Origin: a virus
Taxonomy: Duplodnaviria > Caudoviricetes
Length of the DNA: 64,000 nt
Reading direction: 5' to 3' (one strand)
Virus record (IMG/VR): IMGVR_UViG_3300020187_001966
Each line of letters opens with the position of its first letter. The first letter of the stretch is position 1. Below, piece after piece: positions 3,249 to 34,971 of the stretch. The position numbers were made by a program, and so were the translations under genes. The notes under the pieces are model-generated. The model ran no database searches and was not told where the DNA came from. It saw only the letters and a program-made list of their open reading frames with translations.

Positions 3249-3818
3249 ATGAAAAACTTAGCATTTGGTGCCGCCTTCATTTTAGCTGGATGTTCGGCTA
3301 CCCCCGTTCTCGACTCTGTGGTTACAGCACAACCTTATCTTGGATTAGAAGAAAGATCACACAGAGCAGAACTAAAAGAACTGTTGGATGTAGATCCTGT
3401 ACGTACAGAATGGTGTGCGGCATTTGTTAATAGTGTATTAGAAATAGACGGTATTCCCAATCTAAACGATCAAACAAAATACCCTCCGCTTATGGCAAGA
3501 AGTTTTTTATATTGGGGCGATCGTGTAGAACCTGGAGATATACAACGTGGAGATGTTGTTGTGTTTCCAAGAGGCAACTCGGGTTGGAAAGGACACGTAG
3601 GATTCTATGTTGACACACAGACGCACAACGGCCGAGAATATTGGATTGTACTAGGTGGTAATCAAAGGAATGAAGTGAGATACGACTTCTATCTGCCTAA
3701 TAGAGCATTGGGAATACGTAGATATCCGATAAATACTACTAGTCCACGGAGGACTTTATGGGGATTCAACCCCGTAGACTTAGAACGTCAAGGAGAAAAC
3801 AAATGGGAAGACCACTAA
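3249..3818 (+). CDS. TIGR02594-like NlpC/P60-CHAP peptidoglycan peptidase, predicted lipoprotein
   Basis: Lipobox LAGC; catalytic motifs WCAAFVN and GHVGFY; VLGGNQ. Confidence 0.85.
   Translation: MKNLAFGAAFILAGCSATPVLDSVVTAQPYLGLEERSHRAELKELLDVDPVRTEWCAAFVNSVLEIDGIPNLNDQTKYPPLMARSFLYWGDRVEPGDIQRGDVVVFPRGNSGWKGHVGFYVDTQTHNGREYWIVLGGNQRNEVRYDFYLPNRALGIRRYPINTTSPRRTLWGFNPVDLERQGENKWEDH
3729..3778 (+). promoter_or_regulatory. Late promoter (ATAAATA 3729-3735) followed by two leader hairpins
   Basis: AGTCC-acgga-GGACT (3741-3755); TTTATGGGG-attcaa-CCCCGTAGA (3755-3778); SD AGGAGA at 3791. Confidence 0.6.
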
Positions 3819-4258
3819 ACAAACGATATTTTGCCAAAGCTGATGTAGGACCAACAGCTGCAGGTAACGAAATTAAAGTATCCTTTCATAATGGCACAGC
3901 CGTTAAAGAAGGATTTATTGTAAAACAAAAAGGATCTAAAAGATTCGTATGCTCGGAAATCGGAGCAGCTGATACTTTACATACTTGTACACTAGCAGCT
4001 GACAAACTACCAGCGGCACTAGTAGACGGTGAAATGGCTATTTCATTCAAAATGGATGATGGTGAAACATATTCAGTAAGTAAAATTGCTGGACGTAAGG
4101 TTACATTGTCAGCACCAAGTGCTACAGGCGCAAATACTTATGACGGCGTAAGCGTAGCATGGGGCTTTGGTAACTATACAGATCAAGCAATGATTGAAGA
4201 AGCTGGTGACGATGATGCAGCAGGCGTTGATGACGACGACTTTACAGAAGACGCATAA
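3803..4258 (+). CDS. Putative virion structural protein (MGRPLNKRYF...)
   Basis: Start moved to ATG 3803 behind SD AGGAGA; late promoter; acidic tail. Confidence 0.65.
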   Translation: MGRPLNKRYFAKADVGPTAAGNEIKVSFHNGTAVKEGFIVKQKGSKRFVCSEIGAADTLHTCTLAADKLPAALVDGEMAISFKMDDGETYSVSKIAGRKVTLSAPSATGANTYDGVSVAWGFGNYTDQAMIEEAGDDDAAGVDDDDFTEDA

Positions 4259-4317: not shown

Positions 4318-4695
4318 ATGAAAATAAATGAAGTTACACAAATAGTCGAAAAGACTGAAATTACTCTAGAAGATACACAAGACTTCCACGAAGAGTTTGG
4401 ATATCTGGCATACAGTATAGACGAAGGCGATCTATTTGAAGCAGAGTACCAAGGACGTAAAGTTAAACTAAACAAGCCAATGCGTGGTGATGTTAAGAAG
4501 TTTAAAGTATATGTAAAAGATGGCGACAAAGTAAAAAAAGTAAACTTTGGTCACGGCGGCACAAGTGCTAAACGTCCAACAATGCGTATACGCAAAAGCA
4601 ATCCAAAAGCACGTAAGAGTTTTAGAGCAAGACATAATTGCGATAATCCAGGACCAAAGACCAAGGCAAGATATTGGAGTTGCAGGGCCTGGTGA
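4318..4695 (+). CDS. Putative head-internal protein with basic Cys/Trp C-terminal domain
   Basis: N-terminus MKINEVTQIVE; after LFE a K/R-rich domain ending RHNC...RYWSCRAW. Confidence 0.7.
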   Translation: MKINEVTQIVEKTEITLEDTQDFHEEFGYLAYSIDEGDLFEAEYQGRKVKLNKPMRGDVKKFKVYVKDGDKVKKVNFGHGGTSAKRPTMRIRKSNPKARKSFRARHNCDNPGPKTKARYWSCRAW

Positions 4696-5315
4696 TGCAT
4701 TATACTATCTATAAAATAACTAACCAGATAAATGGAAAATATTACATTGGTAGGCACGCTACTAAAGATGTAAATGACTCCTATATGGGTAGTGGTATAG
4801 GCATTAAAAATGCTATTGCAAAGTACGGTGTTGAAAACTTTACTAAAGAAATTATTGCAACAGCAGACAATACAGATGCACTATGGGACTTAGAATTAAA
4901 AATCGTCAACGAAGATGTAGTGAAAGATACTATGTCTTACAATATGTCGTACGGTGGAAAGCATTACTTACATGGATTAAAACAATACGATTACGATGCA
5001 TTTATAGAGCATCAGCGCAAAGCAGGACAGCAATATGCTAAAAACTTTACAGGAAATTCTAAAGAATGGCATGCCAAGGGCGGTTCTAAAAGTTCTCGTA
5101 TGCGTAGCGAACAATACACGTATCGCATTACTACAAACGAAGGCGTAGAATATATTGTAAACGGTTTAGAATTTAAAGAACTATGTGCAGAGAAAGACTG
5201 GAACTATAATACCTTACACTGGAAGAAAAGCATGGGTAAATATATTAGTAGAGGCAAGCACAAAGGCTTCTTAGTAGAACAACTTAGTACGTATAAGCAG
5301 GAAGTGGTAACATGA
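4695..5315 (+). mobile_element. Free-standing GIY-YIG homing endonuclease (Seg-like)
   Basis: YTIYKITNQINGKYYIGRH...YMGSG...KYGVENFTKEII; TGATG coupling puts the start at 4695. Confidence 0.85.
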
Positions 5316-6457
5316 AAGCAACTGATTTAAACCTGAGTGAAATGCCAGCAATGACTTTACATGGTCCAGATGGGTTCGGACTTACACAATATAGTGGTGA
5401 TGAATATGCCCTAGTAGGCGGCTTTAGAGACGGAGCAAGTAACGCTGGTGAGTTGAGACTAAAGTATCAAATATATAGTCACGCTCTTATTGATGCTAAT
5501 GGCGGTGATTTTGCTAAAGGTGAAATTGGTTATTGTGTTGTAAGAGTAGCAAGTGATGATGGACCAGACCAAGGTGAAATTTTAGGTTTGATTGATATTG
5601 AACTAAAACCAAAGTATAGAAAAAGCGGACACGGCAAAAAGATTGTACGTGATATTGTTGATACAACAAAGTCAGGCAATTTAGATATACACGACATTCA
5701 AAAGAAAGCCAAGAAGTTCTGGGACAAGATGGGTGTTGAGTATGATGCGAAAAAGCCGGGCGCTAAGAATGCAGTACTTAGAAAACAATCTGAAAGTGTA
5801 CTAGACGAAGATATAGCTAGTGTTGCTGAAGTTACGGCTATGGCGGCAGTAGCAGGACTAGCCGCACCAGTAATGATGGCTATGCTTAAAGCGGCATACA
5901 AAACTGGAAAAGGTATTAACGCTATTAGAAAAATCGCAAATCGTGCAGGTGTTAAACTTGCTGATCGTGTAATGGGCGAAGAGCTAGAAGACTTTAATAA
6001 AGACGAACCAAACAAAAGTACAGTAGCAGTGCCTGGATATGGTACTATGAATGTTGATAGTTTGATGAAGAACATTGTTGACCAAACTACACAAATGGTA
6101 AAGCAAATGCAAGCTGGTACACAAGGATTTCGCAATGCTGATTATGCTTTAAATAGTAATAAAGTATTAGCAACCAAAGTAGCAGCATTAGTAAAAGCAC
6201 TAGATGACTTACAAGCAATACGTGCCAAAGGTGGTGCTAACAGTAAAAATATTCAACAAGAAGCAGAAGAAGAACAACAAGCTCTTCCAATTGACGTAAA
6301 CAAAATTATGGGTAATATACAAGAGTTTGAAAGTAAGAAATACATTAATCCAGAAGATGCTGATCTAATGAGACGTGGTGTACAAAGTTTAGCAACACCA
6401 AGACAAACAGTAAACCCTAATGCTATATTACAATTACTAACAATGGTAACAAGATGA
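5312..6457 (+). CDS. Putative internal protein with GNAT acetyltransferase domain
   Basis: MKATDLNLSE N-terminus; LIDIELKPKYRKSGHGKKIV resembles GNAT acetyl-CoA motif A. Confidence 0.6.
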   Translation: MKATDLNLSEMPAMTLHGPDGFGLTQYSGDEYALVGGFRDGASNAGELRLKYQIYSHALIDANGGDFAKGEIGYCVVRVASDDGPDQGEILGLIDIELKPKYRKSGHGKKIVRDIVDTTKSGNLDIHDIQKKAKKFWDKMGVEYDAKKPGAKNAVLRKQSESVLDEDIASVAEVTAMAAVAGLAAPVMMAMLKAAYKTGKGINAIRKIANRAGVKLADRVMGEELEDFNKDEPNKSTVAVPGYGTMNVDSLMKNIVDQTTQMVKQMQAGTQGFRNADYALNSNKVLATKVAALVKALDDLQAIRAKGGANSKNIQQEAEEEQQALPIDVNKIMGNIQEFESKKYINPEDADLMRRGVQSLATPRQTVNPNAILQLLTMVTR

Positions 6458-6654
6458 AAATCTCTCAGATTATATCAGAAGCAGGTGTTGGTAAGATAAC
6501 CAAATATAACACTACAGTAGATGTTAAGCCTGGCGAAACAGAACGTCAAGCAGCTAAGTTTTTCCCAATGAACAAAGGCGGAAAACCAAAGCCTCTTGGT
6601 GTTCCTGGTGCTACTCCTAATCAAGCATTTAATTTAGGACTAACTAAAACATGA
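6454..6654 (+). CDS. Small putative internal protein
   Basis: MKISQIISE|AGVGKITK; ATGA coupling on both sides. Confidence 0.7.
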   Translation: MKISQIISEAGVGKITKYNTTVDVKPGETERQAAKFFPMNKGGKPKPLGVPGATPNQAFNLGLTKT

Positions 6655-8591
6655 AGATCGATCAAATCACAGAAAACATGAGTCATACTAGTAAACGACT
6701 ACATGACATTGAAAAGGAAAAGGGTGTAAAGCCTGGTACTCCTGAGTGGTTTAAACTGTGGTTTAGTTTACCTTACCTTAAAGAAAGCACAGTTGTAGAA
6801 GGTTACAAACTACAATTAGAACGTGATACTGATATGATGGTATTAAATATTGTTGACACTGCTACAGGCAAGCGTACAGAAGTTCGTGGCAAGGCAGGCT
6901 ATGAGACTAACGGTTATGATAAAAATGACAAACTACATCAGTTACTAGATAAAATTAGTAAAACTGCTAATATCAGTGAACTAATGAACGGTGAACCTGT
7001 TGGTATCAACCCTAAACACCCAGACGGTGCTAGTGCAAAGAAAGCAACGACTAAAGCATTCAATGAAGCAAAAGATGGTCTACCAGTTAAAACACTCAAA
7101 GGATTATACCATGTCGGCACGATGGATTCATCTGAGAAGCGTGATGGCTTCGAGGGTGCAGGATTAAGCGTAAGTACACATCCTGATGCTTGGAAGCAGA
7201 TTGCTAGAGGTCACGTAACAGGTGATACTCACAGTGCTACAAAAGAAGGCAATAAATTCTTAGATGTACATAGTCTTTCAGACGCACACAATAAACAAAT
7301 CAAACAATGGGCAATCGAAAATGGCTACTTAGAACAGCAAGAAACTGTTACAGTATGTTACTATGATGATGAAATGGAAGATGATCTTTGTTCAACTTTC
7401 GACTCAATGGCAGATGCCGAAGCAGAGTATGATGAAGAACTAAAGCATATGGATGTAACAGTAGACAAGGGCGGCATTGTTCCTACTGATAAGCTGAAAA
7501 AAGAAACAAGACAAAATCGTATAGATTCAACAGGTGTGCTAGAGTTTGTACTACCAATATTTGCAGAACAACAAGGACTCGACGGTGTTTGGTGGCAAGA
7601 TAACCTAGATGTCCAGCGATATTCGGCACCACGTGGTGTTATTGTTCCTAGCAAGATTAAGTCTTGGAAGTTCACAGTTAACGAATCAATTACAGAAGCA
7701 TTTGATAATCCTTATTCATATTATTGGGATGATACATATAACGGCGATGACTCTTTTCTAGCTAAAGCTGAAATGGATATGGGCGAACTAATGGTTATGT
7801 TTTCAGTAGGCGAGCCAGGTGAAAGTTGGACTATTGACTTTGCGGTAGACGGATCAATGGACAAAACAGGTGACGGAGATCAGTTTAGAATCTTTGCTAC
7901 AGTAGTTGCAGTTATAAAAGACTGGATGGCTAATAAGGTAGATTTATCTAAAGTAACACAAATTGATTTTAGTTCTGACAAGGACGGCGAGGCAGAAGAT
8001 AGTAGAGCTAAACTATACAAACGTTTTGGTCAACAACTAGCAAGTAAACTTGGATGGAATTTAGAAGTCACAGATAGAGGACAATTTGCTTCCTTTAAGA
8101 TTAAGAATCCAAATGCTCCTGTGAAAGAAGCAGTTAATGAAGCAATAGAAATGAAAATTAGCGACTTGACTATCAGTGATGCTGGTATGGCAATCGCACA
8201 ATCAGTAGGTGGTGGAAGTAGAACAGATGCTCCGTTGGCAGTTACAAAACTTCCATCAGGCCATGTATATCTGGTAAATGGGTATCATAGATTAGTAGAT
8301 GCTATGCAGGCTGGCAAAGATACTGTATCGGTAGAATATGTTCCATATGAAAAAGTAGAAATACTTTGGAAACAAGAACGTGAACAAGATATCAAATACG
8401 GTAAACAGTTTAACGAAAACTTCGCAGACGGTAAAGTAAAAGGCAAAAGCAGACCAGGCAGAGTAAAGAAGTCAGGTGCTAGTTGTAATGGTAGCGTAAC
8501 AGAATTACGAGCAAAAGCAAAAAAAGCCAGCGGTGAGAAAGCAAAGATGTATCACTGGTGTGCCAACATGAAAGCTGGTAAGAAGAAATGA
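6651..8591 (+). CDS. Multi-module putative internal polyprotein (ART-like, ParB/Srx-like and basic modules)
   Basis: Modules bounded by ITE/LKE/FNE/VNE/VKE; LYHVGT...GLSVS (ART-like); VYLVNGYHRL (ParB-N-like). Confidence 0.6.
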   Translation: MKIDQITENMSHTSKRLHDIEKEKGVKPGTPEWFKLWFSLPYLKESTVVEGYKLQLERDTDMMVLNIVDTATGKRTEVRGKAGYETNGYDKNDKLHQLLDKISKTANISELMNGEPVGINPKHPDGASAKKATTKAFNEAKDGLPVKTLKGLYHVGTMDSSEKRDGFEGAGLSVSTHPDAWKQIARGHVTGDTHSATKEGNKFLDVHSLSDAHNKQIKQWAIENGYLEQQETVTVCYYDDEMEDDLCSTFDSMADAEAEYDEELKHMDVTVDKGGIVPTDKLKKETRQNRIDSTGVLEFVLPIFAEQQGLDGVWWQDNLDVQRYSAPRGVIVPSKIKSWKFTVNESITEAFDNPYSYYWDDTYNGDDSFLAKAEMDMGELMVMFSVGEPGESWTIDFAVDGSMDKTGDGDQFRIFATVVAVIKDWMANKVDLSKVTQIDFSSDKDGEAEDSRAKLYKRFGQQLASKLGWNLEVTDRGQFASFKIKNPNAPVKEAVNEAIEMKISDLTISDAGMAIAQSVGGGSRTDAPLAVTKLPSGHVYLVNGYHRLVDAMQAGKDTVSVEYVPYEKVEILWKQEREQDIKYGKQFNENFADGKVKGKSRPGRVKKSGASCNGSVTELRAKAKKASGEKAKMYHWCANMKAGKKK

Positions 8592-8806
8592 AGATGTTTT
8601 TTAAAAAGTGGTGGCGCAGTATGTTTCCACAATATATACTTGAAGTAAAACATCGTGGCGTTGAGCGCCGCATACATGTAGTAAAATTTCATAAGAAGAA
8701 TATGAAACGATTGGCAGGTATAAATGTTCATGGTGAGACCTTTGAACTAATGAGTAAAGAACCAATGGATTACTATGTAGTAGAATACAGGGATGATTTA
8801 AGATGA
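8588..8806 (+). CDS. Hypothetical protein
   Basis: 72 aa, ATGA-coupled on both sides. Confidence 0.65.
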   Translation: MKMFFKKWWRSMFPQYILEVKHRGVERRIHVVKFHKKNMKRLAGINVHGETFELMSKEPMDYYVVEYRDDLR

Positions 8807-9441
8807 AATTATCAGAATTATTAAACATCAACTTCCCTCAATTGGAGGAAGTGATGAGTACAGAAGATTTAGAGGACAAAGTCCAAAAACAAAAACAAGA
8901 CGCATTCAATAAAGCTATGCTTGACGCAATGCATCGTCTTGTAATGAGTAAAGACAAAAGAAGTAGTATTGGCAGCTATGCTTTTGATATATCACGTAGT
9001 TTTGGAGGAGTAAGTCCCAAAGAAGTTGAACGTATGTACCGTGACAAATATATGACTGAGGGAGAACAACTCCCTACAATAATAACGCAAACAATGTTGG
9101 ATACACTAGAAAAACATCTAGATAAAATGTTTTCATCAGTTGGCATTGATGTAGAGTTTACACGACACTTTTTAGACCGTGTAAATGATAACAGAAATAA
9201 AACGCAAATTACTCTAAAAGAGCTTGCTATTTTGTTTAAAGACGCTTATAATAAGTATGGTAAGCAAATAGCACAAATGGGTCCAGATGCGGAAGCTGTC
9301 ATTAAAGATATGCGCAGTGATGTTAATCTACCTTTTGTACTAAATTGGGATAGTAGTAATCAAGAGCTAGACTTAGTAGCAAAAACAGTTATGCGTAAAA
9401 AAGACTTCTTTACTCCTGATACAGAGCTTCCGTTAACATAA
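8803..9441 (+). CDS. Putative internal protein; C-terminal HFLDRVND...KTVMRK domain (possible RNase fold)
   Basis: MKLSELL N-terminus; second module after MTE|G. Confidence 0.55.
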   Translation: MKLSELLNINFPQLEEVMSTEDLEDKVQKQKQDAFNKAMLDAMHRLVMSKDKRSSIGSYAFDISRSFGGVSPKEVERMYRDKYMTEGEQLPTIITQTMLDTLEKHLDKMFSSVGIDVEFTRHFLDRVNDNRNKTQITLKELAILFKDAYNKYGKQIAQMGPDAEAVIKDMRSDVNLPFVLNWDSSNQELDLVAKTVMRKKDFFTPDTELPLT

Positions 9442-9468
9442 CATGTTATTAACAAATAACAGTTTACG

Positions 9469-9475
9469 ATAAATA
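9469..9475 (+). promoter_or_regulatory. T4-type late promoter
   Basis: GATAAATA in intergenic gap, 30 nt before ATG 9505 with SD GGAG. Confidence 0.6.
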
Positions 9476-9504
9476 ACTATATATAGAAAATCCGGAGTGT
9501 CTCA

Positions 9505-9981
9505 ATGAGATTAGAAAAAATACAAACAGCACAACAGGCGCAAGCTAAACCATCAGTGGCAAAAGTAGCTGAAGGTTACGCAGTGCGTGATGTTAATAAC
9601 AAAGAAGTAAAAGTTTTTGAAGACATTGATGTAGCAAAAAGCTATTTGAAGCGTCATATTACAGAACTTAAAGAAGGCCGTGAGCCAGTTGTATACATGA
9701 GTGAAATCATGGAAGGTGTCCTAGATGACACTGACGACGATGGTTGGATGGCAAAAAGTGAACTATACAAACTTTCAAAGTATGCTATTCAGTTACACGG
9801 TATGATCCAAGATAACGAAAATTTAGAACCTTGGGTACAAAGCAAAATCACAAAAGCAGCTGATTATATTAGTTCAGTAAAACATTATATGGAATACGTT
9901 CAAATGACTGACGGACAACCTGAAGTAGTAGACGACATGCCAATGGAAATACCAAACGAATTGCCACCTGAAGGAATGTAA
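9505..9981 (+). CDS. Putative prohead core/internal protein
   Basis: VAE|G, LKE|G, IME|G sites; DGWMAKSEL...LEPWVQSKITKAADY domain typical of large T4-like phages. Confidence 0.6.
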   Translation: MRLEKIQTAQQAQAKPSVAKVAEGYAVRDVNNKEVKVFEDIDVAKSYLKRHITELKEGREPVVYMSEIMEGVLDDTDDDGWMAKSELYKLSKYAIQLHGMIQDNENLEPWVQSKITKAADYISSVKHYMEYVQMTDGQPEVVDDMPMEIPNELPPEGM

Positions 9982-9983
9982 TA

Positions 9984-11597
9984 ATGAAGTTTACTGATTT
10001 TACTGAAAAAGTTATTGAATCTATTGTTAACGAAGAAGCAGCTATTAAACTTGATTTTGATCAAGTGAGGATAAGAATACCTGCTAACGATAATACTAGA
10101 CCAACTACTGGAGAAGTTATTGATTTAGATTCTCGTCGAGCTGCAGCAAAAGATGCTCTTAGTAAAATGTCAGAAGCAGACAGAAAATCTGCAAACGAAT
10201 TTATTAAAAAGAACAAAACTCTACTACAAAGACTATCGTCTGTAGGAGCCAGATCAGCAGCAAGACATGGTGTAGCAACAATTTCAAGTGTAGCATCAGG
10301 CCCACTTGCGCCAGCAGTAGCAGCAGTATTAAATGTAGCAATGCTAGGTTGGGATTTAGCTGATGCCGGCGTTGAAATATGGGACTGGGCAAAATCAAAC
10401 AATGCTAAAGATATTAAACAAGGTAATGCTGGTCGAGCCTATGGCAATGATTTAGCAATGGTAGTTCCAAGATCACCTAGACAGAATTCAAGAGACGATG
10501 ATGCGTATGAAATAAAACATTTAACTCAACAATCACAATTTGGTGCTGCTGGTATGAGAGATCAAGCTGCTCGATTACTATCACAACGTCAAGCTGAATA
10601 CCGCAGAGATCAACAAGAATGGGACAAAGAGTTTGGAAAAACACACTTAGATAACGGCACAGCAAATCCAGATGCAGGTTATCAAGATAAAATAATGAGA
10701 ATTGCGCAAGCAGGTAGAGATGCTCAAAATAAAGCAAGTGATAACGAGCTTATTAAAAAAGCACAACAAAAACCTCAAGATATTCCTCCTGTTGTTAATT
10801 TTACAAATATTCCACCATTGATCACACCATCGTTTACCCCAGGCACAATTAACAACCCAACTGGAGAATTCACTCCCCCTGAATTTGACCCTAATGCTCC
10901 TGAGTTCCCTGAGTTACCTAAAAGGGGTAAACCATTTAAAGCACCAGAAACACCTATAGAGCCAGCTCCAAAAGGCCCTAAAGTTATAACTAAATCACCA
11001 ACCCAACCAAAAAGAACCGACAAGGATCTGGAAAATCCAATAGTACCTGGAGAATTCACTCCCCCTGAATTTGACCCTAATGCTCCTGAGTTCCCTGATT
11101 TACCTAAAAGGGATGATCCGTTTAAAGCACCAAAGCCACCTGTAGAGCCAACTCCAAAAGGCCCTAAAGTTGTAACTACCCCACCTAAACAACCAAAAAG
11201 AACCGACAAGGATCTGGAAAATCCAATAGTACCTGGAGAATTCACTCCCCCTGCATTTGACCCTAATGCTCCTGAGTTCCCTGAGTTACCTAAAAGGGGT
11301 AAACCATTTACAGAACCAGAGTTGCCAAAAGAATTACCAAAAGAATTACCAAAAGAATTACCAAAAAAGTACACCCCTCCTGCTATAACCCCTAATCCAC
11401 ATGCCGGGATAGTTATTGGGAAAAAAGGTAAAACTGATACTAAGACAAAAACCAAGGAAAAACCTAAAGGCAAGACGACAAGTAGACGTGTTGGTGGTGA
11501 TGCTGGCAGTGGTGATCGCATTAAGTCAACGGCTAATCAAATGAAGTTCAGCCCTATAAATATTAGAGACCCACTAAACTTAAAGAGATATGGATAA
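9984..11597 (+). CDS. Putative internal protein with Pro-rich tandem repeats
   Basis: MKFTDFTE...IVNE|E start; 62-aa repeats and (ELPK)x4. Confidence 0.7.
   Translation: MKFTDFTEKVIESIVNEEAAIKLDFDQVRIRIPANDNTRPTTGEVIDLDSRRAAAKDALSKMSEADRKSANEFIKKNKTLLQRLSSVGARSAARHGVATISSVASGPLAPAVAAVLNVAMLGWDLADAGVEIWDWAKSNNAKDIKQGNAGRAYGNDLAMVVPRSPRQNSRDDDAYEIKHLTQQSQFGAAGMRDQAARLLSQRQAEYRRDQQEWDKEFGKTHLDNGTANPDAGYQDKIMRIAQAGRDAQNKASDNELIKKAQQKPQDIPPVVNFTNIPPLITPSFTPGTINNPTGEFTPPEFDPNAPEFPELPKRGKPFKAPETPIEPAPKGPKVITKSPTQPKRTDKDLENPIVPGEFTPPEFDPNAPEFPDLPKRDDPFKAPKPPVEPTPKGPKVVTTPPKQPKRTDKDLENPIVPGEFTPPAFDPNAPEFPELPKRGKPFTEPELPKELPKELPKELPKKYTPPAITPNPHAGIVIGKKGKTDTKTKTKEKPKGKTTSRRVGGDAGSGDRIKSTANQMKFSPINIRDPLNLKRYG
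10861..11310 (+). repeat. 186-bp in-frame tandem repeat, about 2.4 copies
   Basis: CTGGAGAATTCACTCCCCCT... starts at 10861, 11047 and 11233. Confidence 0.92.
11319..11366 (+). repeat. 12-bp tandem repeat x4 encoding ELPK
   Basis: GAGTTGCCAAAA followed by GAATTACCAAAA x3. Confidence 0.92.
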
Positions 11598-11600
11598 GAA

Positions 11601-13421
11601 ATGATACACAAAATAGCAAAACAAATCATAGCAGAAGCTAGACAAAGCAGAACTAATTATGCTGTTACACAACAGCCATATGATAAAATTAAAGCAAATA
11701 TGTACACCATATTTGAATGCTATGCTCGTGGTATTATTGACTGGGACATTTCAAAAACAAAACTACAAAATGTAATTAAAGAGTATGTAAATTTATATCC
11801 ACTAGAAGAGCGTAAAGCTGAAGTTAAAATTATGCGTGAAGAATATAAACGTATCACAACAGACTATAAACTAGCACTAGACGAATATCGTGTAGTTGCT
11901 GAACAAAAAATGACAAGTAGTTTAGTAGCAAAACAAAAACTAGACGAAAGTACAGCGCAACATCACAGTAATGTATTTTACAATGGACGTAATTTAACTG
12001 AATCAGATCTTAAAGATATTGCTACACTTAAAACATGGCAACGTGTAATGGAAGCGTATCCTAACCTTACAACAAAAGAAGAAGAGCTTGTACGTACACT
12101 TGAAAACACATATGATACTAAAGACTTTGAATTTAATCCAAGAGCTGGTCATAGAGATCAAATGGCACATCCAGAAAATCAAGGATTAGGTCCATCAAAT
12201 ATGTCTAGCCCACGTCCCAAGTTACGTCCTAAAAAACTAGCTCCAATGTCAAGTCCACGTCCACAAGCCCGTCCAGCAAACTTACAAATGCGTAATGATA
12301 TTAATAAAGCAGTACAGCAGGCAGTTGGAGAAGGCGATAGCCCACACAAAAAAGGTACAGCAAAGTACAAAGCACATATGGCGGCAATGCATGCTGAAGG
12401 ATATAAAGAGTTGCCGCCAATTAACAGAGATCGTTATCAAGAACGTGACGGTCTAGAAGGACCATTCAGTACACTAAGTGGTAAGGTAGTTTATTATGAT
12501 CCAAAAGAAGGTTCGTACTACGATCCAGACACAGATATGTATATGAGTTATGGCGAATTCAAAGCACTTGACAACGACTATAGTAACATGAAAGACGAAC
12601 GTGACATCGACGTAAAAGAAGAAATGAGCAATGACGAAGTAGATGCGTTCCATCGTGCACTAGATGAACTTGTGCACAAGCACTTAGGTCACAGCTCACA
12701 TGAGAAAGAAATGGACGAAGTTGAAGAAACACTTAGCCCAGAAGAGAAAAAGCAAGTCAATCAAATGTACAACAAAGACGGTACGTTAACTGACATTGGT
12801 AAAAAAGTTATGAGCCAAGGACAAATACAAGATATCCTTAAAAAAGCAATGAAGCAACTTAAAGGTATTGATGCCCAAGCAAAGTTTACACACAGAGATT
12901 TAAATCAAGCAGTTGCTACAATTAATCAAGGTAATATTCCAGGCGCACTACAAGAATTAGTAAATGGTGTAGATGGTCCTGAGCCACAAATACAAGACAC
13001 ATTTAATGACGCACATGATGATTTACAGAGACTTATTAACCCTAAAACAGACAAAGAACTAGATGATGAGTATTGGCAAGACGTATCCGATATGAAAGCA
13101 AAAAGCAGAGCTGGCGTAGAATCAATTGTTCATGATGTATTTGATACAGCACTTGAAGAAATGACAAGCGCAGGTGCTATTGCCAGTGTAGCAACACCAA
13201 TGGGTAAAATGAAACGCCGTAAAGACAGTATTTTTGCTGACAAAGAAACTAAAGGCGATGTAATGACTGAAGCACAGTTTGACGAAGCGGCAGGCGAAAA
13301 AGATGCTTGTTATCGTAAAGTAAAATCACGTTATAAAGTATGGCCAAGTGCTTATGCTAGTGGCGCATTAACAAAATGTCGTAAAGTTGGAGCAGCCAAC
13401 TGGGGAAAAAGTAAGAAGTAA
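11601..13421 (+). CDS. Multi-module putative internal/core polyprotein
   Basis: IAE|A, LDE|S, LTE|S, VGE|G, VKE|E, LEE|M, MTE|A, FDE|A sites; basic C-terminal DACYRKVK...SAYASGALTKCRK module. Confidence 0.6.
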   Translation: MIHKIAKQIIAEARQSRTNYAVTQQPYDKIKANMYTIFECYARGIIDWDISKTKLQNVIKEYVNLYPLEERKAEVKIMREEYKRITTDYKLALDEYRVVAEQKMTSSLVAKQKLDESTAQHHSNVFYNGRNLTESDLKDIATLKTWQRVMEAYPNLTTKEEELVRTLENTYDTKDFEFNPRAGHRDQMAHPENQGLGPSNMSSPRPKLRPKKLAPMSSPRPQARPANLQMRNDINKAVQQAVGEGDSPHKKGTAKYKAHMAAMHAEGYKELPPINRDRYQERDGLEGPFSTLSGKVVYYDPKEGSYYDPDTDMYMSYGEFKALDNDYSNMKDERDIDVKEEMSNDEVDAFHRALDELVHKHLGHSSHEKEMDEVEETLSPEEKKQVNQMYNKDGTLTDIGKKVMSQGQIQDILKKAMKQLKGIDAQAKFTHRDLNQAVATINQGNIPGALQELVNGVDGPEPQIQDTFNDAHDDLQRLINPKTDKELDDEYWQDVSDMKAKSRAGVESIVHDVFDTALEEMTSAGAIASVATPMGKMKRRKDSIFADKETKGDVMTEAQFDEAAGEKDACYRKVKSRYKVWPSAYASGALTKCRKVGAANWGKSKK

Positions 13422-13424
13422 TAA

Positions 13425-14279
13425 ATGGGTAACCGGAATCAAAATAGCACAGATTATATTCACGCAGATGAACCAAACATTTTAAATGTTCATAAAGCTA
13501 TGGATTATAATCAGCAAGGGCAACCGCTACTAAGAACAACTGGTAGTAGTTATGATTGGATTATTAACATTAGCGCAGGTGCGGTTGATGGTACTGGTTA
13601 TATTGAAAAGTTCGGCATGAACACTGATGTAGACAGCGACAAAGAAACAATTTGGGACGGTGGAGGTATATATACGTATCTATCCACTGGCGAGAAACTT
13701 TCAGTTACTAGCAGCAGTGTTAATGATAGCGCATCTGGATCAGGTGCTCGTACTGTAGAGATACAAGGTTGTAATGATGCTGGAGAGGTTATTTTAGAAA
13801 CTGTTGAGATTGGTAGTGCAAGTACTCAATTGTTTAAACGTGTGTTTCGTGTAAAGGTTGTAACATCAGGCACAAGCGGAGTTAATGAAGGTATTATTAA
13901 TATTACTAGTCTGGTATCTACAACAATAGTTGCTCAAATTGGAGTTGATGGCACTGGTAGTAATGCAGCAGGACGTGGACAAACATTCATGGCGTTGTAT
14001 ACAGTACCAGTAGGAAAAACAGCATATTTGACACAATGGACTGTTGGTTGTGGTAAGCAAAATACAGATGCTATTGCTACATTTATGGCAAAAACACCAG
14101 CTGGTGCTTGGAATGCTAAAGATATTATTACAGTTAGCGCAACTACATACACTAAAGATTATAAGATTCCAATACAGTTTACAGAACAAACAGATATAGA
14201 AGTACGTGCTTATAGTAGTGTAAACAATTCACTAGTAAGTAGTACGTTTAACTTATTGATAATAGACAACCCGGTATAA
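13425..14279 (+). CDS. Putative virion structural protein (Gly/Ser/Thr-rich beta-sandwich)
   Basis: Composition and position in the late cluster; KFG.N.D...ETIWDGGG.Y pattern recalled from marine phage structural proteins. Confidence 0.5.
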   Translation: MGNRNQNSTDYIHADEPNILNVHKAMDYNQQGQPLLRTTGSSYDWIINISAGAVDGTGYIEKFGMNTDVDSDKETIWDGGGIYTYLSTGEKLSVTSSSVNDSASGSGARTVEIQGCNDAGEVILETVEIGSASTQLFKRVFRVKVVTSGTSGVNEGIINITSLVSTTIVAQIGVDGTGSNAAGRGQTFMALYTVPVGKTAYLTQWTVGCGKQNTDAIATFMAKTPAGAWNAKDIITVSATTYTKDYKIPIQFTEQTDIEVRAYSSVNNSLVSSTFNLLIIDNPV

Positions 14280-14282
14280 ATA
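14275..14282 (+). promoter_or_regulatory. T4-type late promoter, 5 nt before ATG (leaderless)
   Basis: Perfect TATAAATA; ATG at 14288; no SD. Confidence 0.7.
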
Positions 14283-14287
14283 TTTAC

Positions 14288-14599
14288 ATGCTTATAGAAG
14301 ACATCATAACAGAAGATTTACGGGCATGGTTCGGCAAAGGCAAAAAAGGCGGGGCCGGCGGAGGTGGCTGGGATCGTTACAACAGCAAAGGCGAACGTGT
14401 TGGCAAATGTGGAGATGGCGAAGGCAAAGGCAAACCAAAGTGTCTAAGTAAAAGCGCAGCCGCTAAACTACGTAATGCTGACAAAAACAAAGACGGCAAA
14501 AAAGACGGAGCAAAAGGTATTGCTACCGCAGTTAAACGTAAAAAATCAAAAGACCCTAATCCTAATCGCAAGGGCAAAGCAAAGAACGTAAAGAACTAA
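14288..14599 (+). CDS. Small, highly basic putative internal protein
   Basis: MLIEDIITE|DLRAWFG; K/G-rich with two Cys. Confidence 0.7.
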   Translation: MLIEDIITEDLRAWFGKGKKGGAGGGGWDRYNSKGERVGKCGDGEGKGKPKCLSKSAAAKLRNADKNKDGKKDGAKGIATAVKRKKSKDPNPNRKGKAKNVKN

Positions 14600-21997: not shown

Positions 21998-22696
21998 GTG
22001 CTAGACTTAAAAGTTATTGAAGTCCAACACTATACAGATAAACTTTTTAGAATTAGAACAGAGCGACCTCGCAGTTATAGATTTACTGCGGGGGAGTTCG
22101 TTATGATTGGTTTAGAGGATGCTCCAAGTAGAGCGTATAGTATTACCAGTGGTCCATATGACGACTACATAGAATTTTACAGTATTAAAGTACAAGACGG
22201 ACCGCTTACTAGTAAACTACAACACATTGTAGTAGGCGATACTATTCTTGTAGGTGAGAAGCCAACAGGTACACTTATACTTGCTAACTTAGAACTAGGC
22301 GGACATCTAGTAATGATGGCAAGTGGTACTGGTATTGCTCCGTTTATTAGTTTACTACGTGAACCAGAAACATATGATCTATTTGAGAACATTACAGTAA
22401 CATGGACTACTAGGCTACATGCTGAACAGGACTGTTACCGAGACTTCTTGAATGAGATGCCCATTGAATACATCAGCACAGTTACACAAGAGCCTGCTGA
22501 ACTACAAGGACGTATTCAAGTGTTCATGGCAGACGGTACTGTAAAGATTGACAACCCCGCAGAACAGCGTATAATGTTATGTGGAAGTGTAGCATTTAAC
22601 AATGATTTAAAAGAACACTTTAACAGCCTCGGATTTAACGAAGGCAACAAACGTACACAAGGAACGTTTGTACAAGAAAGGGCATTTGTCGGCTAA
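21998..22696 (+). CDS. fpr: Ferredoxin/flavodoxin-NADP+ reductase
   Basis: RFTAGEFVMIGL, RAYSITS, GPLTSKLQ, GTGIAPF, QGRI, MLCGS, ERAF. Confidence 0.9.
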   Translation: MLDLKVIEVQHYTDKLFRIRTERPRSYRFTAGEFVMIGLEDAPSRAYSITSGPYDDYIEFYSIKVQDGPLTSKLQHIVVGDTILVGEKPTGTLILANLELGGHLVMMASGTGIAPFISLLREPETYDLFENITVTWTTRLHAEQDCYRDFLNEMPIEYISTVTQEPAELQGRIQVFMADGTVKIDNPAEQRIMLCGSVAFNNDLKEHFNSLGFNEGNKRTQGTFVQERAFVG

Positions 22697-25380
22697 TGTA
22701 TGTAGACGCTTACTTCGATCAAAACAAAGATATTATCCACGTTACTGAACGTGATGAAAAAGGGCGGCGGGTATTCCGTGAGTATCCTGCTAGCTATGGC
22801 TTTTATTACAAGGATCAGCGTGGAAAGTACGACAGTATCTTTGGCGATAAACTATCACGTTATGCTACAACTAATGGCAGAGCGTTTAAAAAAGAAAAGA
22901 AGATGTATGGCGGACAAAAACTTTTTGAAAGTGATGTTAACCGCACGTTTAAGTGTTTAGCAGACAACTACTTGGGTAAAGATACTCCTAACTTAAACTT
23001 AGCCTTTTTTGATATTGAGGTTGACTTTGATAAAGACGTAGGATTTGCTCCGCCTGAAGATCCGTTTAACGCTATTACAGCAATCGCAGTTCATCTTAGT
23101 TGGCTTAAAACTACAGTATGTTTAGTGTGTAAACCAGACACACTTAGCCGTGAAGATGCAGCAGAGATATGTAGTCGCTTTCCAGACACTATGTTAATGG
23201 ATACAGAGGAAGAACTACTAAAAACTTTCCTTGAATTAATTGATGATGCGGATGTAATGAGTGGATGGAACAGCGAAGGCTTCGACATTCCATACACAGT
23301 AAACCGTATTTCTAGAACAATTGGTAAAGAGTATACTAAAAAGTTTTGCTTGTGGGATCAATATCCTAAACGCAGAGAGTTTGAGCGTTATGGAAAGTCA
23401 CAAGAGACGTTTGATACTATTGGACGTTTGCACTTAGACTATTTGCAACTGTATCAAAAATACACATATCACGAAATGCACAGCTACAGTTTGGATGCTA
23501 TTGCAGAGTATGAACTAGGCGAAAAGAAAGTTGAATACAAAGGCACACTTGACCAGTTATACAACAACGACTTCTATACGTTTATTGACTACAACAGACA
23601 AGACGTTGAGCTACTAGTTAAACTAGATGCCAAGCTACAGTTTATTGACTTAGCAAATGTTATTGCGCACGATAATACAGTTCTTATTCAGACAACAATG
23701 GGTGCTGTTGCGGTTACTGACCAAGCTATTATTAATGAAGCACATCATCGTGGACTAATTGTTCCTGACAAAGTACGTGATAAAGTACAAAAGCATTATC
23801 CACAATCAACACAAGCCGCAGGTGCGTATGTTGCTACTCCTGTACGTGGTAGGCACGAGTGGATTGGCAGTATGGACTTAAACAGTCTGTATCCTAGTAT
23901 CCTACGTAGCCTTAACTTGAGTACAGAAACTATTGTAGGGCAGGTTAGACACACATTAACTGTGCCACTACTACAGGAATATAAATGGGAAGCCGCAAGA
24001 GCGTGGGAGGGCAAGTTTGCTTGTCCAGAGTATGAGCTTGTAATGGCAAAGGATACTGAAACGCAACTGTGGATTGACTTTGAAAACGGCGAAGAGCTAA
24101 TGGCAACTGGTGCTGAAATATATAGCATTGTCTTTGAAAGCGATCAGCCTTGGGTTATTAGTAGTAATGCTACTATTATTAGACAAGACAAAAAAGGTAT
24201 TATTCCTGGATTGCTAGAGCGTTGGTATGCTGAACGTAAAGTTATGCAGAAAGAAGCTAGAGCTGTACAAGGTAAAGATGATGCCAAGTTTGGATACTGG
24301 GACAAGCGACAACTAGTTAAAAAGATTAACTTGAACAGTTTGTATGGTGCGTTACTTAATCAAGGATCACGTTTTAATGATCCACGCATGGGACAATCAA
24401 CAACATTAACAGGACGTACTATTGCTAGACATATGGGTGCTAGTGTTAATGAACTGTTTACTGGAGAATACAATCACGTAGGCGATACAATTGTGTATGG
24501 CGACACGGATAGTATCTACTTTAGTGCGTACCCTATCTTTAAAGACAAGATTGAAAGCGGAGAGTTTGAGTGGAATAAAGACAAGGTTACTGAACTTTAT
24601 GACACTGTATGCGATCAAGCAAACACAACGTTTCCTGGATATATGGCACAAGCACATAATGTACTTGACCAAAAGCAAGGTGAGATTATTGCCGCCGCTC
24701 GTGAAATGGTTGCCTTGTCTGGTATCTTTATTAAAAAGAAGCGTTATGCTATCCTAGTATATGATAACGAAGGCTATAGAGAAGACAAAGACGACAAGCC
24801 AGGTAAGATTAAAGCAATGGGCTTGGACTTAAAGCGTAGTGACACACCAGCATTTATGCAAGACTTTCTCAGTGAACTACTGCTTAAAACGCTAACAGGT
24901 ACAACTGATGATGATTTGATTGCTCGCATTATTGAGTTCCGTCAAGAGTTTAGACAAAAAGATCCGTGGGAGATTGGCACACCAAAGCGTGTTAACAAGC
25001 TAACACATTATACAGGGTTAGAATGGGATAAGAAAGGCGTGTACACTGGTAAAGCAAACATGCCTGGACACGTAAGAGCCGCAATCAACTACAATAGACT
25101 CAAGGGTATTAACAACGATAAATACAGTCCAGACATTGTTGATGGTATGAAAACTATTGTCTGTAAACTGAAACCGAATCCAATGGGATTCACTAGCATA
25201 GGATATCCTACAGATTCAATAATCCCTCCAGACTGGTTCAAAGAACTACCGTTTGATGTAGATCTTATGGAGGAAACAATCATTACTAAAAAGATTGATA
25301 ACTTACTTGGTGTACTACCAATTGACTTATCAAAAGCAGAGGACAAGACTACATTTGAGAGTCTGTTTGATTTTGGATGA
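22696..25380 (+). CDS. Family B DNA polymerase (T4 gp43-like)
   Basis: Exo motifs DIE, GWNSEGFDIPY, YNRQD; Pol motifs DLNSLYPS, KINLNSLYG, YGDTDS. Confidence 0.96.
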   Translation: MYVDAYFDQNKDIIHVTERDEKGRRVFREYPASYGFYYKDQRGKYDSIFGDKLSRYATTNGRAFKKEKKMYGGQKLFESDVNRTFKCLADNYLGKDTPNLNLAFFDIEVDFDKDVGFAPPEDPFNAITAIAVHLSWLKTTVCLVCKPDTLSREDAAEICSRFPDTMLMDTEEELLKTFLELIDDADVMSGWNSEGFDIPYTVNRISRTIGKEYTKKFCLWDQYPKRREFERYGKSQETFDTIGRLHLDYLQLYQKYTYHEMHSYSLDAIAEYELGEKKVEYKGTLDQLYNNDFYTFIDYNRQDVELLVKLDAKLQFIDLANVIAHDNTVLIQTTMGAVAVTDQAIINEAHHRGLIVPDKVRDKVQKHYPQSTQAAGAYVATPVRGRHEWIGSMDLNSLYPSILRSLNLSTETIVGQVRHTLTVPLLQEYKWEAARAWEGKFACPEYELVMAKDTETQLWIDFENGEELMATGAEIYSIVFESDQPWVISSNATIIRQDKKGIIPGLLERWYAERKVMQKEARAVQGKDDAKFGYWDKRQLVKKINLNSLYGALLNQGSRFNDPRMGQSTTLTGRTIARHMGASVNELFTGEYNHVGDTIVYGDTDSIYFSAYPIFKDKIESGEFEWNKDKVTELYDTVCDQANTTFPGYMAQAHNVLDQKQGEIIAAAREMVALSGIFIKKKRYAILVYDNEGYREDKDDKPGKIKAMGLDLKRSDTPAFMQDFLSELLLKTLTGTTDDDLIARIIEFRQEFRQKDPWEIGTPKRVNKLTHYTGLEWDKKGVYTGKANMPGHVRAAINYNRLKGINNDKYSPDIVDGMKTIVCKLKPNPMGFTSIGYPTDSIIPPDWFKELPFDVDLMEETIITKKIDNLLGVLPIDLSKAEDKTTFESLFDFG

Positions 25381-33851: not shown

Positions 33852-33859
33852 TATAAATA
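33852..33859 (+). promoter_or_regulatory. T4-type late promoter, 5 nt before ATG (leaderless)
   Basis: Perfect TATAAATA; ATG 33865; no SD. Confidence 0.7.
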
Positions 33860-33864
33860 ATAAC

Positions 33865-34971
33865 ATGAGATATACACAGTTTAAACCAGATAACATTAAT
33901 GAAGGCGGCAATAGTTCAGGAGTACGTTACAACAGTGAAGTAGGCTTACTACATACGTTTGCTGGAGCAAAAGAATTTGATCCTAATGATGTTGCTGGAA
34001 GTTTTGACTTATCAAAATTAGAAAACCCAGAAGCTGTTGTTGCTGGAATACAAAAGTTTTTAGTACCAGATTACAATGAGAAGATTTTTTCTGCTTGGAG
34101 AAATATTGGTGAACTGTATCAATCACATATGGCTAGTAAATTGTCTACTATGCCTACTCGCTTTGGTTGGGTAGGTGGTGCTAATGCTGGACCAGTTGCT
34201 GATGTAGAATTTATTGATCATGAATGTTCTGGTATTAGTGTTAAAGATGCTGGTGGTATTACACTTAAAAATCTAACTCCAAAATCACTAGGCATTGATG
34301 GCGAATACGGTATTGACGTATTTGCGTATCATGCTGAAGAAGATTATATTAAAATGAAGCAAGCAATCTTTAATGATGTTATGGATCTTGCACAGAAAAG
34401 TCCAGACACTCGCATTGCGCCAATAACAGACAAATACGCTATTACATATCTATCGCAACAAGATAAATTTTATTGCGAAGGTAAAAACAAAGTAGAACTA
34501 TCACGCAACGATATTTTAAATTCAGTATCAAAGAATGCCAAATGGCAACGTGTTTTTGGAGATTGGTTCCAAGCTAATTGGTCCACTAAGAAACAGTATG
34601 CTGAACCACTATACTTAGATATTGCCAAAACTTTTGAGAAAGTTATTGAAAACTCATTACAAGACAGATCTAAATTAACAACAACACTAGCATTTGAAGA
34701 CAAATCGTATTTTTATGCTACGCCTAAGAGCTTATTCTTTGTCCCAAGTGTTAATGACTTAGACGATATTTCCATTAAAAATTTAAAATATGGAGCACCA
34801 GACGGTACTTCACAAAAGTACCTTGCTGAAATTGGTATGCCAGGTAGTATAGAAAATGCCGCAATTATAATATACATTCGTTATGCTAATGGCATGTTTG
34901 AAACTAACCCAACAGTCAGAATACAGAGTTTAAGGAACCCTGAGTTTATTGGCTGGCAAAAACTAGTATAA
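33865..34971 (+). CDS. Putative PD-(D/E)xK restriction-endonuclease-like protein with capsid-targeting-like N-terminus
   Basis: YNSE...WVGG.N..PVADVEF...GISVK...TLKNLT; N-terminus ...NINE|G. Confidence 0.55.
   Translation: MRYTQFKPDNINEGGNSSGVRYNSEVGLLHTFAGAKEFDPNDVAGSFDLSKLENPEAVVAGIQKFLVPDYNEKIFSAWRNIGELYQSHMASKLSTMPTRFGWVGGANAGPVADVEFIDHECSGISVKDAGGITLKNLTPKSLGIDGEYGIDVFAYHAEEDYIKMKQAIFNDVMDLAQKSPDTRIAPITDKYAITYLSQQDKFYCEGKNKVELSRNDILNSVSKNAKWQRVFGDWFQANWSTKKQYAEPLYLDIAKTFEKVIENSLQDRSKLTTTLAFEDKSYFYATPKSLFFVPSVNDLDDISIKNLKYGAPDGTSQKYLAEIGMPGSIENAAIIIYIRYANGMFETNPTVRIQSLRNPEFIGWQKLV

Follow-up and report, generated by a model that had tools for sequence, protein, structure and literature searches.

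Leader-bearing modular proteins with candidate prohead-protease sites in a T4-superfamily phage: a proposed internal-head cargo system

How are we to understand a row of phage genes whose products begin with similar short, acidic-ending leaders, and in which hydrophobic-x-glutamate (h-x-E) tripeptides separate one small domain from the next? The question is raised by positions 4318-14599 of IMG/VR record IMGVR_UViG_3300020187_001966, a 64,000-nucleotide stretch of Caudoviricetes DNA (hereafter the window), in which twelve open reading frames (ORFs), all co-oriented, lie on the + strand. Here we report that the modules encoded by this array, when compared across related contigs, are reordered, inserted or deleted, and split or fused exactly at h-x-E sites. 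We infer packaging, cleavage and ejection, and put at roughly 0.6 the probability that these are T4-type capsid-targeted proteins of polyvalent-like build that are cut apart by the prohead protease.

Results

Array proteins open with a T4-type leader

An initial annotation of the window had picked out nine similar leaders, and all nine are present, in the + strand ORFs that begin at 4318, 5312, 6454, 6651, 8803, 9505, 9984, 11601 and 14288. Scored by a fixed rule (h-x-E, where h is I, L, V, M or F and the Glu falls at residue 5-14), 8 of 11 array ORFs carry a leader, compared with 17 of the 85 other ORFs of the window (Fisher p=7.6e-4); the ORF at 9505 has no h-x-E before residue 23. Not every gene of the stretch is part of the proposed system, and three ORFs within it, at 4674-5315 (GIY-YIG), 8588-8806 (72 aa) and 13425-14279 (284 aa), have no leader. 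The leader-bearing proteins are listed here, with P1 denoting the Glu, P2 and P3 the two residues before it, and an arrow the proposed cut.

4318..4695, + strand: 125-aa predicted cargo protein; leader MKINEVTQIVE (residues 1-11), acidic spacer, junction LFE41↓A at nt 4432-4440
4441-4692, + strand: ORF 4318 module (residues 42-125 of the preceding protein), with a phrog_7595 match over residues 42-125
5312..6457, + strand: 381-aa predicted cargo protein; leader MKATDLNLSE, weak GNAT-like region (residues 69-141), hydrophobic-helix module between junction candidates LDE166 and MGE223, C-terminal module at the end
6454..6654, + strand: 66-aa predicted cargo protein; leader MKISQIISE and a single small basic module (GVGK...TTVDV...)
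6651..8588, + strand: 646-aa polyprotein; leader and modules a, b, c, d, e and f
8803..9441, + strand: 212-aa predicted cargo protein; leader MKLSELLNINFPQLEE (P1 at E16), modules at residues 17-86 (ending MTE86) and 87/94-212, phrog_23027 match at residues 90-206
9505..9981, + strand: 158-aa protein; atypical long leader whose first h-x-E is VAE23, junction candidates MSE67/IME70
9984..11597, + strand: 537-aa predicted cargo protein; leader MKFTDFTE, further sites VIE12 and VNE17, hydrophobic segment, Pro-rich repeats, basic tail
11601..13421, + strand: 606-aa polyprotein; leader MIHKIAKQIIAE (P1 at E12), matches to phrog_727, 38880, 3477 and 13298, junction candidates VGE244, VKE340, MDE373/VEE376 and MTE557
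14288..14599, + strand: 103-aa predicted cargo protein; leader MLIEDIITE and a Gly/Lys-rich basic module (DLRAWF...GKPKC..), phrog_727

Relatives were gathered from IMG/VR using as anchors the conserved 284-aa neighbour and two array proteins; the 646-aa protein alone matches more than 600 IMG/VR stretches. Across more than 100 related viral contigs, 70% of 359 distinct N-termini of array-like proteins pass the leader rule, compared with 17% of 583 control ORFs. Their positional consensus is M-[KR]-[IL]-x-[ED]-[LI]-[IL]-E, with which the leader of the 646-aa protein (MKIDQITE, 6651..6674, P1 at E8) agrees. In a comparison with ipI, ipII, ipIII and gp24 of T4 (record NC_000866), the array leader resembles the propeptides of ipII/ipIII and gp24, which read MKTYQEFIAE↓A and MAKINELLRE↓S, with gp23 reading ..FLTE↓AEIGG.

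On comparison of homologues, the leader behaves as a portable add-on, since module types occur tagged with it, behind an internal h-x-E, or bare. Homologues of module c of the 646-aa protein thus fall into two classes, one that starts directly at the module and one with 8-12 extra N-terminal residues, MR[IL]xE[IL]..E. The ORF 4318 module makes up a whole protein of 79-85 aa, with nothing in front, in Roseobacter phage CRP-902, Pelagibacter phage Kolga and a Nitrosopumilaceae spindle-shaped virus, in none of which was a match to Peptidase_S77 (the gp21 type of prohead protease) obtained; in the T4-like phages Melnitz and HTVC008M, in which S77 is present, the same module forms the end of larger proteins, right after MME↓ or LEE↓. 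A co-occurrence test on metagenome homologues with and without a leader was precluded by the ambiguity of their gene neighbourhoods. As a separate observation, leaders (MRLFDLVE↓, MKTLKE↓) are also found on NMNAT/cytidylyltransferase-like enzymes (L006 4910-7186; L028 2079-3869, which is HTVC008M gp130) that are fused to, or precede, the ORF 4318 module; such a protein may be an injected NAD-related enzyme.

Internal h-x-E sites mark module junctions

All of the internal sites quoted initially (FNE, VNE, ITE, VKE, LDE, MTE, FDE, IME and LTE) were located. The total density of h-x-E in array proteins is not above background; rather, it is the placement of the sites that exceeds chance. The 646-aa polyprotein is divided as follows.

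6675..7067, + strand: modules a and b, residues 9-50 and 51-139 (GYKLQLER type), bounded by LKE45/VVE50 and FNE139
7068..7697, + strand: module c, residues 140-349, between FNE139 and VNE345/ITE349; predicted ADP-ribosyltransferase (ART)-superfamily fold
7698..8150, + strand: module d, residues 350-500, ending VKE493/VNE497/E500; phrog_6387, predicted GNAT fold
8151..8417, + strand: module e, residues 501-589, ending FNE589; ParB/Srx-like (..VNGYHR..)
8418..8588, + strand: module f, residues 590-646; C-terminal 57-residue basic tail (net +14), NFADGK...MYHWCANMK..

Between 10 and 56 homology breakpoints fall at each of E45/50, E139, E345/349, E493/497 and E589 (36-56 at E45/50, 42 at E139, and 3 at E497 taken alone), whereas the other h-x-E sites of the protein, which lie within modules, have 0 or 1. 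A further 20-21 breakpoints are found at E67/E70 of the 158-aa protein. A crude earlier test on window proteins only gave 12 of 35 against 6.3 expected (p=0.009), a result that was not significant with all breakpoints counted. In a family-wide test, based on deduplicated internal alignment boundaries of about 500 array-like proteins, 30-50% of breakpoints lay within 5 residues of an h-x-E compared with 19% expected (p ~1e-4 to 5e-5), and the enrichment persisted once windows of possibly mis-called N-termini had been removed. At the same breakpoints neither h-x-D nor h-x-K was enriched. The initial proposal was to fall if such sites were no commoner at domain boundaries than background; instead, breakpoints concentrate at the quoted sites and h-x-E is strongly concentrated at boundaries.

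We also followed four widely shuffled modules (NFADGK, GYKLQLER, AE[YF]QG and AFDxPY types) through 74 deduplicated, unrelated upstream contexts. The residue before the module was Glu in 74 of 74, P3 was I, L, V, M or F in 60 of 74 (background 25.5%; binomial p=2e-23), and P2 was free. Taken individually, module f was preceded by Glu in 41 of 41 contexts and had a hydrophobic P3 in 32 of 41; module d stood behind h-x-E in 8 of 9; and module b, which follows LNE↓ in L006 and a bare leader in L007 and L049, did so in 9 of 10. The residue that follows the junction Glu is mostly G, S, D or A. At the DNA level no motif was found at the junctions beyond the codon constraints of P3 and Glu, and hence the junction is not a DNA recombination signal.

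Structure prediction was consistent with this division. In an AlphaFold2 model of residues 340-646, confidence falls at E345/349, at E493-500, at E589 and in one loop of module e; these low-confidence junctions, together with a pTM of only 0.48, suggest separate domains joined by predicted flexible linkers at the junction sites. Non-junction h-x-E sites are placed by AlphaFold2 in helices or strands.

Modules are exchanged at the same sites

The initial annotation had asked whether modules shuffle at these sites across genomes. They do: swaps, flanked insertions and fission or fusion were all seen (in L006, L007, L049 and G016). A 539-aa protein of L006 consists of a leader followed by residues 94-211 of ORF 8803, 147-223 of ORF 5312, 19-83 of ORF 8803 and 44-140 of ORF 6651. 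The two modules of the 212-aa protein are reversed and separated in the 539/504-aa proteins of L006/L007, and residues 147/164-223 of the 381-aa protein recur within the L006/L007 polyprotein, ending at E223. Between L006 and L007, two modules stand in swapped order, with insertions that have AFNE↓ on both flanks. The junction ..VVE↓GYKLQLER.., which is fused in the window, is the start of a separate gene in L049 and L007 (MKINEVIMRE↓GYELR.. and MRFSEIENINE↓GYKLQ..); a changed genetic code at L049 was considered and rejected, as the apparent in-frame stops there are a gene boundary. The module of the 66-aa protein closes the L006/L007 polyproteins, where it comes after AFNE↓, and a G016 protein, where it comes after IAE↓; that of the 103-aa protein follows LEE↓ within a 509-aa protein of G016, and module f is found in about 25 contigs, mostly at more than 80% identity, each time after a different sequence ending x-x-E.

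Could it be that the leader alone is removed and that intact multidomain (polyvalent) proteins are packaged and injected, the internal h-x-E sites being former leaders or a linker preference that stays uncut? T4 packages large fusion proteins with one capsid-targeting sequence (PMC9026906), many polyvalent proteins are thought to be active uncut (PMC5512222), and the fission and fusion events described above show that leaders can give rise to junctions. Nonetheless, we consider this explanation unlikely. The notion that junctions are mostly old leaders was dropped, as remnants of complete leaders are scarce inside the proteins and show no enrichment (6 against 4.7 in shuffles); their scarcity, together with the retention of a hydrophobic P3 in 81% of unrelated contexts, makes the three-residue site appear to be selected for itself. 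Moreover, the linkers that hold the sites are predicted to be exposed, and cutting at such places is to be expected of a gp21-type enzyme, which has few other determinants.

Predicted folds of the modules

A Pfam scan of the 12 ORFs in 4318-14599 brought none to threshold, and the PHROG matches of array ORFs are partial only and all to function-unknown families. The claim that enzymatic modules are present was supported by predicted ART and GNAT folds in the window, while the relatives have nucleotidyltransferase, NT5C, ParB, deaminase and poly(A)/CCA-type enzymes.

The 193 homologues of module c are for the most part free-standing proteins of roughly 210 aa in which the leader is present or absent. 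The 13 best structural matches to its AlphaFold2 model (pLDDT 92) all have the ART fold (Z 5.2-8.0) and include MbcT (Z 8.0; rmsd 3.9, 125 aa), the catalytic domain of diphtheria toxin (Z 6.7), AcrIF11 (Z 6.3), RES toxins, ParT and a domain of the cyanophage A-4 pre-ejectosome. A Foldseek search of module c against the PDB gave nothing significant, and its ESM Atlas leads were ART-PolyVal and AcrIF11. Its conserved residues are His15, Glu29, Ser34/36 and Arg189. As modelled, module c is a member of the ART superfamily by fold, nearer to the RES, diphtheria-toxin and AcrIF11 folds. For module d, the top 50 matches in the structure search with the AlphaFold2 model were all GNAT (Z 7.4-9.1), and the module resembles KVP40.0058, which opens with a leader and then AFDRP... 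Module e aligns to ..NGHHR.. segments (a ParB-like motif) in related contigs; the window protein is below Pfam thresholds, and Pfam ParB_N is matched by other leader-bearing proteins of these contigs. The 606-aa polyprotein ends in a basic Cys/Trp module (..VWPSAYASG..NWG; ESM Atlas lead DUF5872) that is found in hundreds of cyanomyovirus records, within the large ORF between g16 and g17. A DNA-binding role for the modules is a guess from basic composition.

Among 98 non-redundant leader-bearing proteins of relatives (E<=0.001), Pfam matches were to cytidylyltransferase-like (7), NT5C (6), GNAT (3), ParB_N (3) and LPD23 (2) families and, in addition, to poly(A)/CCA-type polymerase, zeta-toxin-like kinase, deaminase and peptidoglycan-binding domains. 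One leader-bearing homologue adjoins an LPD11 protein, a GNAT and a DNA polymerase.

A prohead protease in related genomes

The gene order of related contig G004 is T4-like, with the portal followed by small core-like proteins, an S77 protease (phrog_207), a gp22-like scaffold and gp23. One of the core-like proteins starts MKLFEFFE↓, the scaffold is rich in h-x-E, and gp23 has ..HLAE↓ immediately ahead of its conserved mature N-terminus. (In G004 the portal gene is separated from the core/protease genes, with which it is contiguous in T4, by two extra ORFs at L026 10950-12409; one of these, with a CxxxCxxC motif, is radical SAM enzyme-like.) G016 and G017 carry an S77 protease as well as array proteins that follow this grammar and are encoded a few kb away from the polymerase. 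The clade relatives with S77 are G003, G004, G016 and G017 (gp23 was found in G003/G004), and arrays or array modules are present in G004, G016 and G017.

In T4, head targeting requires no more than the first ten residues of IPIII; processing depends on residues 8 and 10 and is blocked by Asp at position 10 (PMC9026906). The enrichment of h-x-E, but not of h-x-D, at breakpoints matches this block to processing by Asp at P1.

A second alternative, which we judge distinctly unlikely, is that the proteins are cytoplasmic and unpackaged, their motifs serving translation efficiency or another protease, or acting outside the head as a signal for degradation or assembly. The array proteins are known from sequence rather than from virions, several of the module families are common cytoplasmic enzymes, and KVP40.0058 adjoins a DNA ligase, among non-structural genes. 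In addition, the T4 late-promoter motif TATAAATA is not enriched in the window, being found 7 times versus 8.4 expected, and late expression therefore gains no support. On the other hand, the motif of the leaders and junctions fits the specificity of S77 proteases, including the rule of Glu but not Asp; it co-occurs with S77 and is missing from the same module in viruses that lack S77; and the array, confined to one strand, has virion-associated genes on either side (a lysozyme-like gene and tail fibres). T4 ip genes, too, are scattered outside structural blocks. Least likely of all, and very improbable in our view, is that the proteins are accessory to the prohead core or scaffold, chopped and expelled in maturation like T4 gp22, gp67 and gp68 rather than delivered, for although T4 core proteins are full of h-x-E sites and array proteins have acidic spacers and coiled segments, well-folded ART and GNAT domains and strongly conserved basic modules are unexpected in disposable filler, and the same modules are independent proteins in unrelated viruses.

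The phage, the flanking genes and other features of the locus

The window phage is a large member of the T4 superfamily. Among cultured phages, identity to its family-B DNA polymerase (22696-25380) reaches no more than 47-48%, with Sinorhizobium phage Phosso, Agrobacterium phage Atu_ph07 and the GAP32/CBB group as the best matches. The polymerase of IMG/VR contig G001 (locus L005) is 90% identical to it, and those of the large or near-complete contigs G004 (300 kb), G016 (342 kb; completeness 95%) and G017 (345 kb; completeness 99%) are 57% identical. A nucleotide search of the 10-kb stretch against 50,697 phage records gave no match; the related array family is common in uncultured T4-superfamily phage contigs, several of them jumbo-sized. 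Of cultured phages, HTVC008M, Melnitz and those like KVP40 have single examples. Compared with the close relative L005, array proteins are mosaics, with pieces that are 34-94% identical against 90% for the polymerase. The 158-aa protein is 87% identical in L005, and conservation of the 537-aa protein is limited to its last 30 residues. The latter protein has three Pro-rich repeats of about 62 aa each at 10775-11521; a 248-aa antisense ORF across these repeats is most likely a repeat artefact.

The leaderless ORFs of the stretch are these.

4674-5315, + strand: GIY-YIG homing endonuclease (phrog_314), without a leader, wedged between two array genes and overlapping the end of ORF 4318
8588..8806, + strand: 72-aa ORF without a leader, 92% identical in L005, with no family match; probably not cargo
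13425..14279, + strand: 284-aa conserved ORF without a leader (phrog_8198), anchor gene for the search for relatives

The homing endonuclease gene is absent from the corresponding place in L005. The array is flanked on one side by a lipoprotein with a lysozyme-like domain and on the other by two tail-fibre-like genes. The lipoprotein (3249-3818; 189 aa) has a lipoprotein signal (..FILAGC) and an amidase/lysozyme-like domain; the latter matches a baseplate-hub/tail-lysozyme PHROG in its C-terminal part. Just upstream of the array, the ORF at 3758-4258 probably has MGRPLNKRYF as its true start; its homologue in G004 (L026 6011-6661) is directly downstream of the major capsid gene, and its product may be capsid-associated.

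Scans of the window for sigma-70 promoters and terminators were uninformative. Individual copies of TATAAATA are located at 14275-14282 and 33852-33859, in each case 5 nt before the ATG (of ORFs 14288 and 33865), and at 11555-11562, 38 nt before ORF 11601. Outside the array, a 368-aa ORF at 33865-34971 has a leader-like start, MRYTQFKPDNINE↓GG, and may be an additional cargo protein whose gene lies at another place in the genome.

Discussion

We propose that the locus is a hypervariable set of internal-head cargo genes in a T4-superfamily jumbo phage. The leader, a propeptide of about 8-16 residues, would be the functional counterpart of the T4 capsid-targeting sequence and would dock each protein in the prohead scaffolding core, after which a gp21-type (S77) prohead protease would remove it after Glu. 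One leader precedes one to six independent modules, of ART-fold, GNAT-fold, ParB-like, small basic Cys/Trp and hydrophobic-helix types, and the exposed linkers between them, h-x-E↓(G/S/A/D), would be cut by the same protease, so that one tag loads several separate effectors. Once freed, the modules would leave the head along with the DNA and be active ahead of all phage gene expression. As the linker is at the same time the boundary of each unit, modules could pass between genes and phages, change places, fuse or split with delivery kept. That any inserted domain gets delivered, as the initial annotation had it, is an extrapolation from T4 experiments (PMC9026906).

Several points weigh against this proposal. 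Its members are known from sequence and predicted structure, and it is from these that we infer virion presence, cleavage and injection. The co-occurrence with S77 comes from the genomes of relatives, and a search for S77 in ten related contigs, each 20-41% complete, found none. A site is found near only a third to a half of crude homology breakpoints, Glu as such shows a mild enrichment there, and it is formally possible that each module begins with the invariant Glu. The structural Z-scores, at 5-9, are middling, nucleotidyltransferase and NT5C cargo types are also ordinary cytoplasmic phage enzymes, and TATAAATA is not above chance.

The closest known counterparts are T4 IPI, IPII, IPIII and Alt. 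Substrates of this T4 type have an N-terminal propeptide of about 10-19 aa that contains hydrophobic positions and ends in (L/I/V)-x-Glu. In common with these, array proteins have a short propeptide that starts with MK, has hydrophobic positions and ends in h-x-E; unrelated mature parts behind a common tag; hypervariable loci; a specificity for Glu and not Asp; and, as in Alt, an ART enzyme among the cargo. No Pfam or PHROG match links the mature parts to IPI, IPII, IPIII or Alt. The array differs in its leader consensus, with P1 mostly at residue 8, in that many of its proteins are multi-module with internal sites whereas T4 internal proteins are single units, and in having about nine such genes in one 10-kb row.

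Polyvalent proteins (Iyer et al. 2017; PMC5512222) likewise combine several effector domains in one polypeptide, as the 646-aa protein does with its ART (on the diphtheria/RES-like side), GNAT and ParB-like modules. Of the domains typical of polyvalent proteins (ART, GNAT, DdrB-like ParB and LPD), the shared set comprises ART, GNAT and ParB-like domains at fold level in the window and, in relatives, Pfam LPD23, ParB_N and GNAT, with LPD11 near a leader-bearing homologue; shared too are a late/virion gene neighbourhood, predicted injection with the DNA and wide domain mosaicism. An effector repertoire like that of the array has been described for polyvalent proteins predicted to be phage-injected (PMC5512222, PMC7824862). 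Pfam matches (E<=0.001) of window proteins and of the 98 relatives included no MuF, portal-fusion or zincin-like peptidase domain, although divergent versions are possible. In contrast to polyvalent proteins, the array is proposed to use a T4-type leader for targeting and the prohead protease, acting in trans at linkers, for processing; T4 Alt-type ARTs have been stated not to be part of genuine polyvalent proteins (PMC5512222).

In phiKZ-like giant phages (phiKZ gp175, SPN3US gp245), a gp21-related protease cuts after Glu at a 3-residue motif (PMC10052503, PMC9026906), and inner-body/ejection proteins resemble the proposed system in the multiple cuts made per protein and in the many packaged proteins that are ejected (PMC10052503, PMC9026906). 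Their motif, however, is S/A-x-E, whereas the array has a large hydrophobic P3, as in T4; the cuts there mainly destroy long propeptides, whereas those in the array would separate functional modules; and phiKZ-like phages and the window phage are different lineages. Finally, the hyperplastic region between g16 and g17 of cyanomyoviruses, a reported variable hot spot (PMC3037559), has a large ORF of the same small basic Cys/Trp modules; its 926-aa version (L001 5026-7806, Synechococcus phage ACG-2014f) has many h-x-E sites and no recognisable leader. In the literature searched we found the concepts of capsid targeting, phiKZ-like multiple cleavage and polyvalency, but not protease-site-delimited modular cargo in T4-type phages.

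If the proposal is true, the T4 capsid-targeting tag and polyvalent effector proteins, so far treated separately, become joined, and a readable grammar of leader and h-x-E linkers would predict injected proteins among the ORFs of T4-like phages that are of unknown function. Pre-made ART, GNAT and NAD- or nucleotide-related enzymes would be first-minute weapons against host defence, carried by a natural, evolvable protein-delivery platform of a kind already engineered in T4, and results on one cultured member would be informative for hundreds of contigs. We suggest, tentatively and at slightly under even odds, that the prohead-protease site serves as a cassette boundary in abundant uncultured T4-superfamily phages, some of them jumbo-sized, such that any module flanked by h-x-E, even a gene captured from an unrelated virus, becomes head cargo, letting these phages put together, rearrange and exchange sets of ready-made counter-defence enzymes (ART, GNAT, NMNAT-like, 5'-nucleotidase, CCA/poly(A)-type and ParB-like) that would act at the moment of injection.

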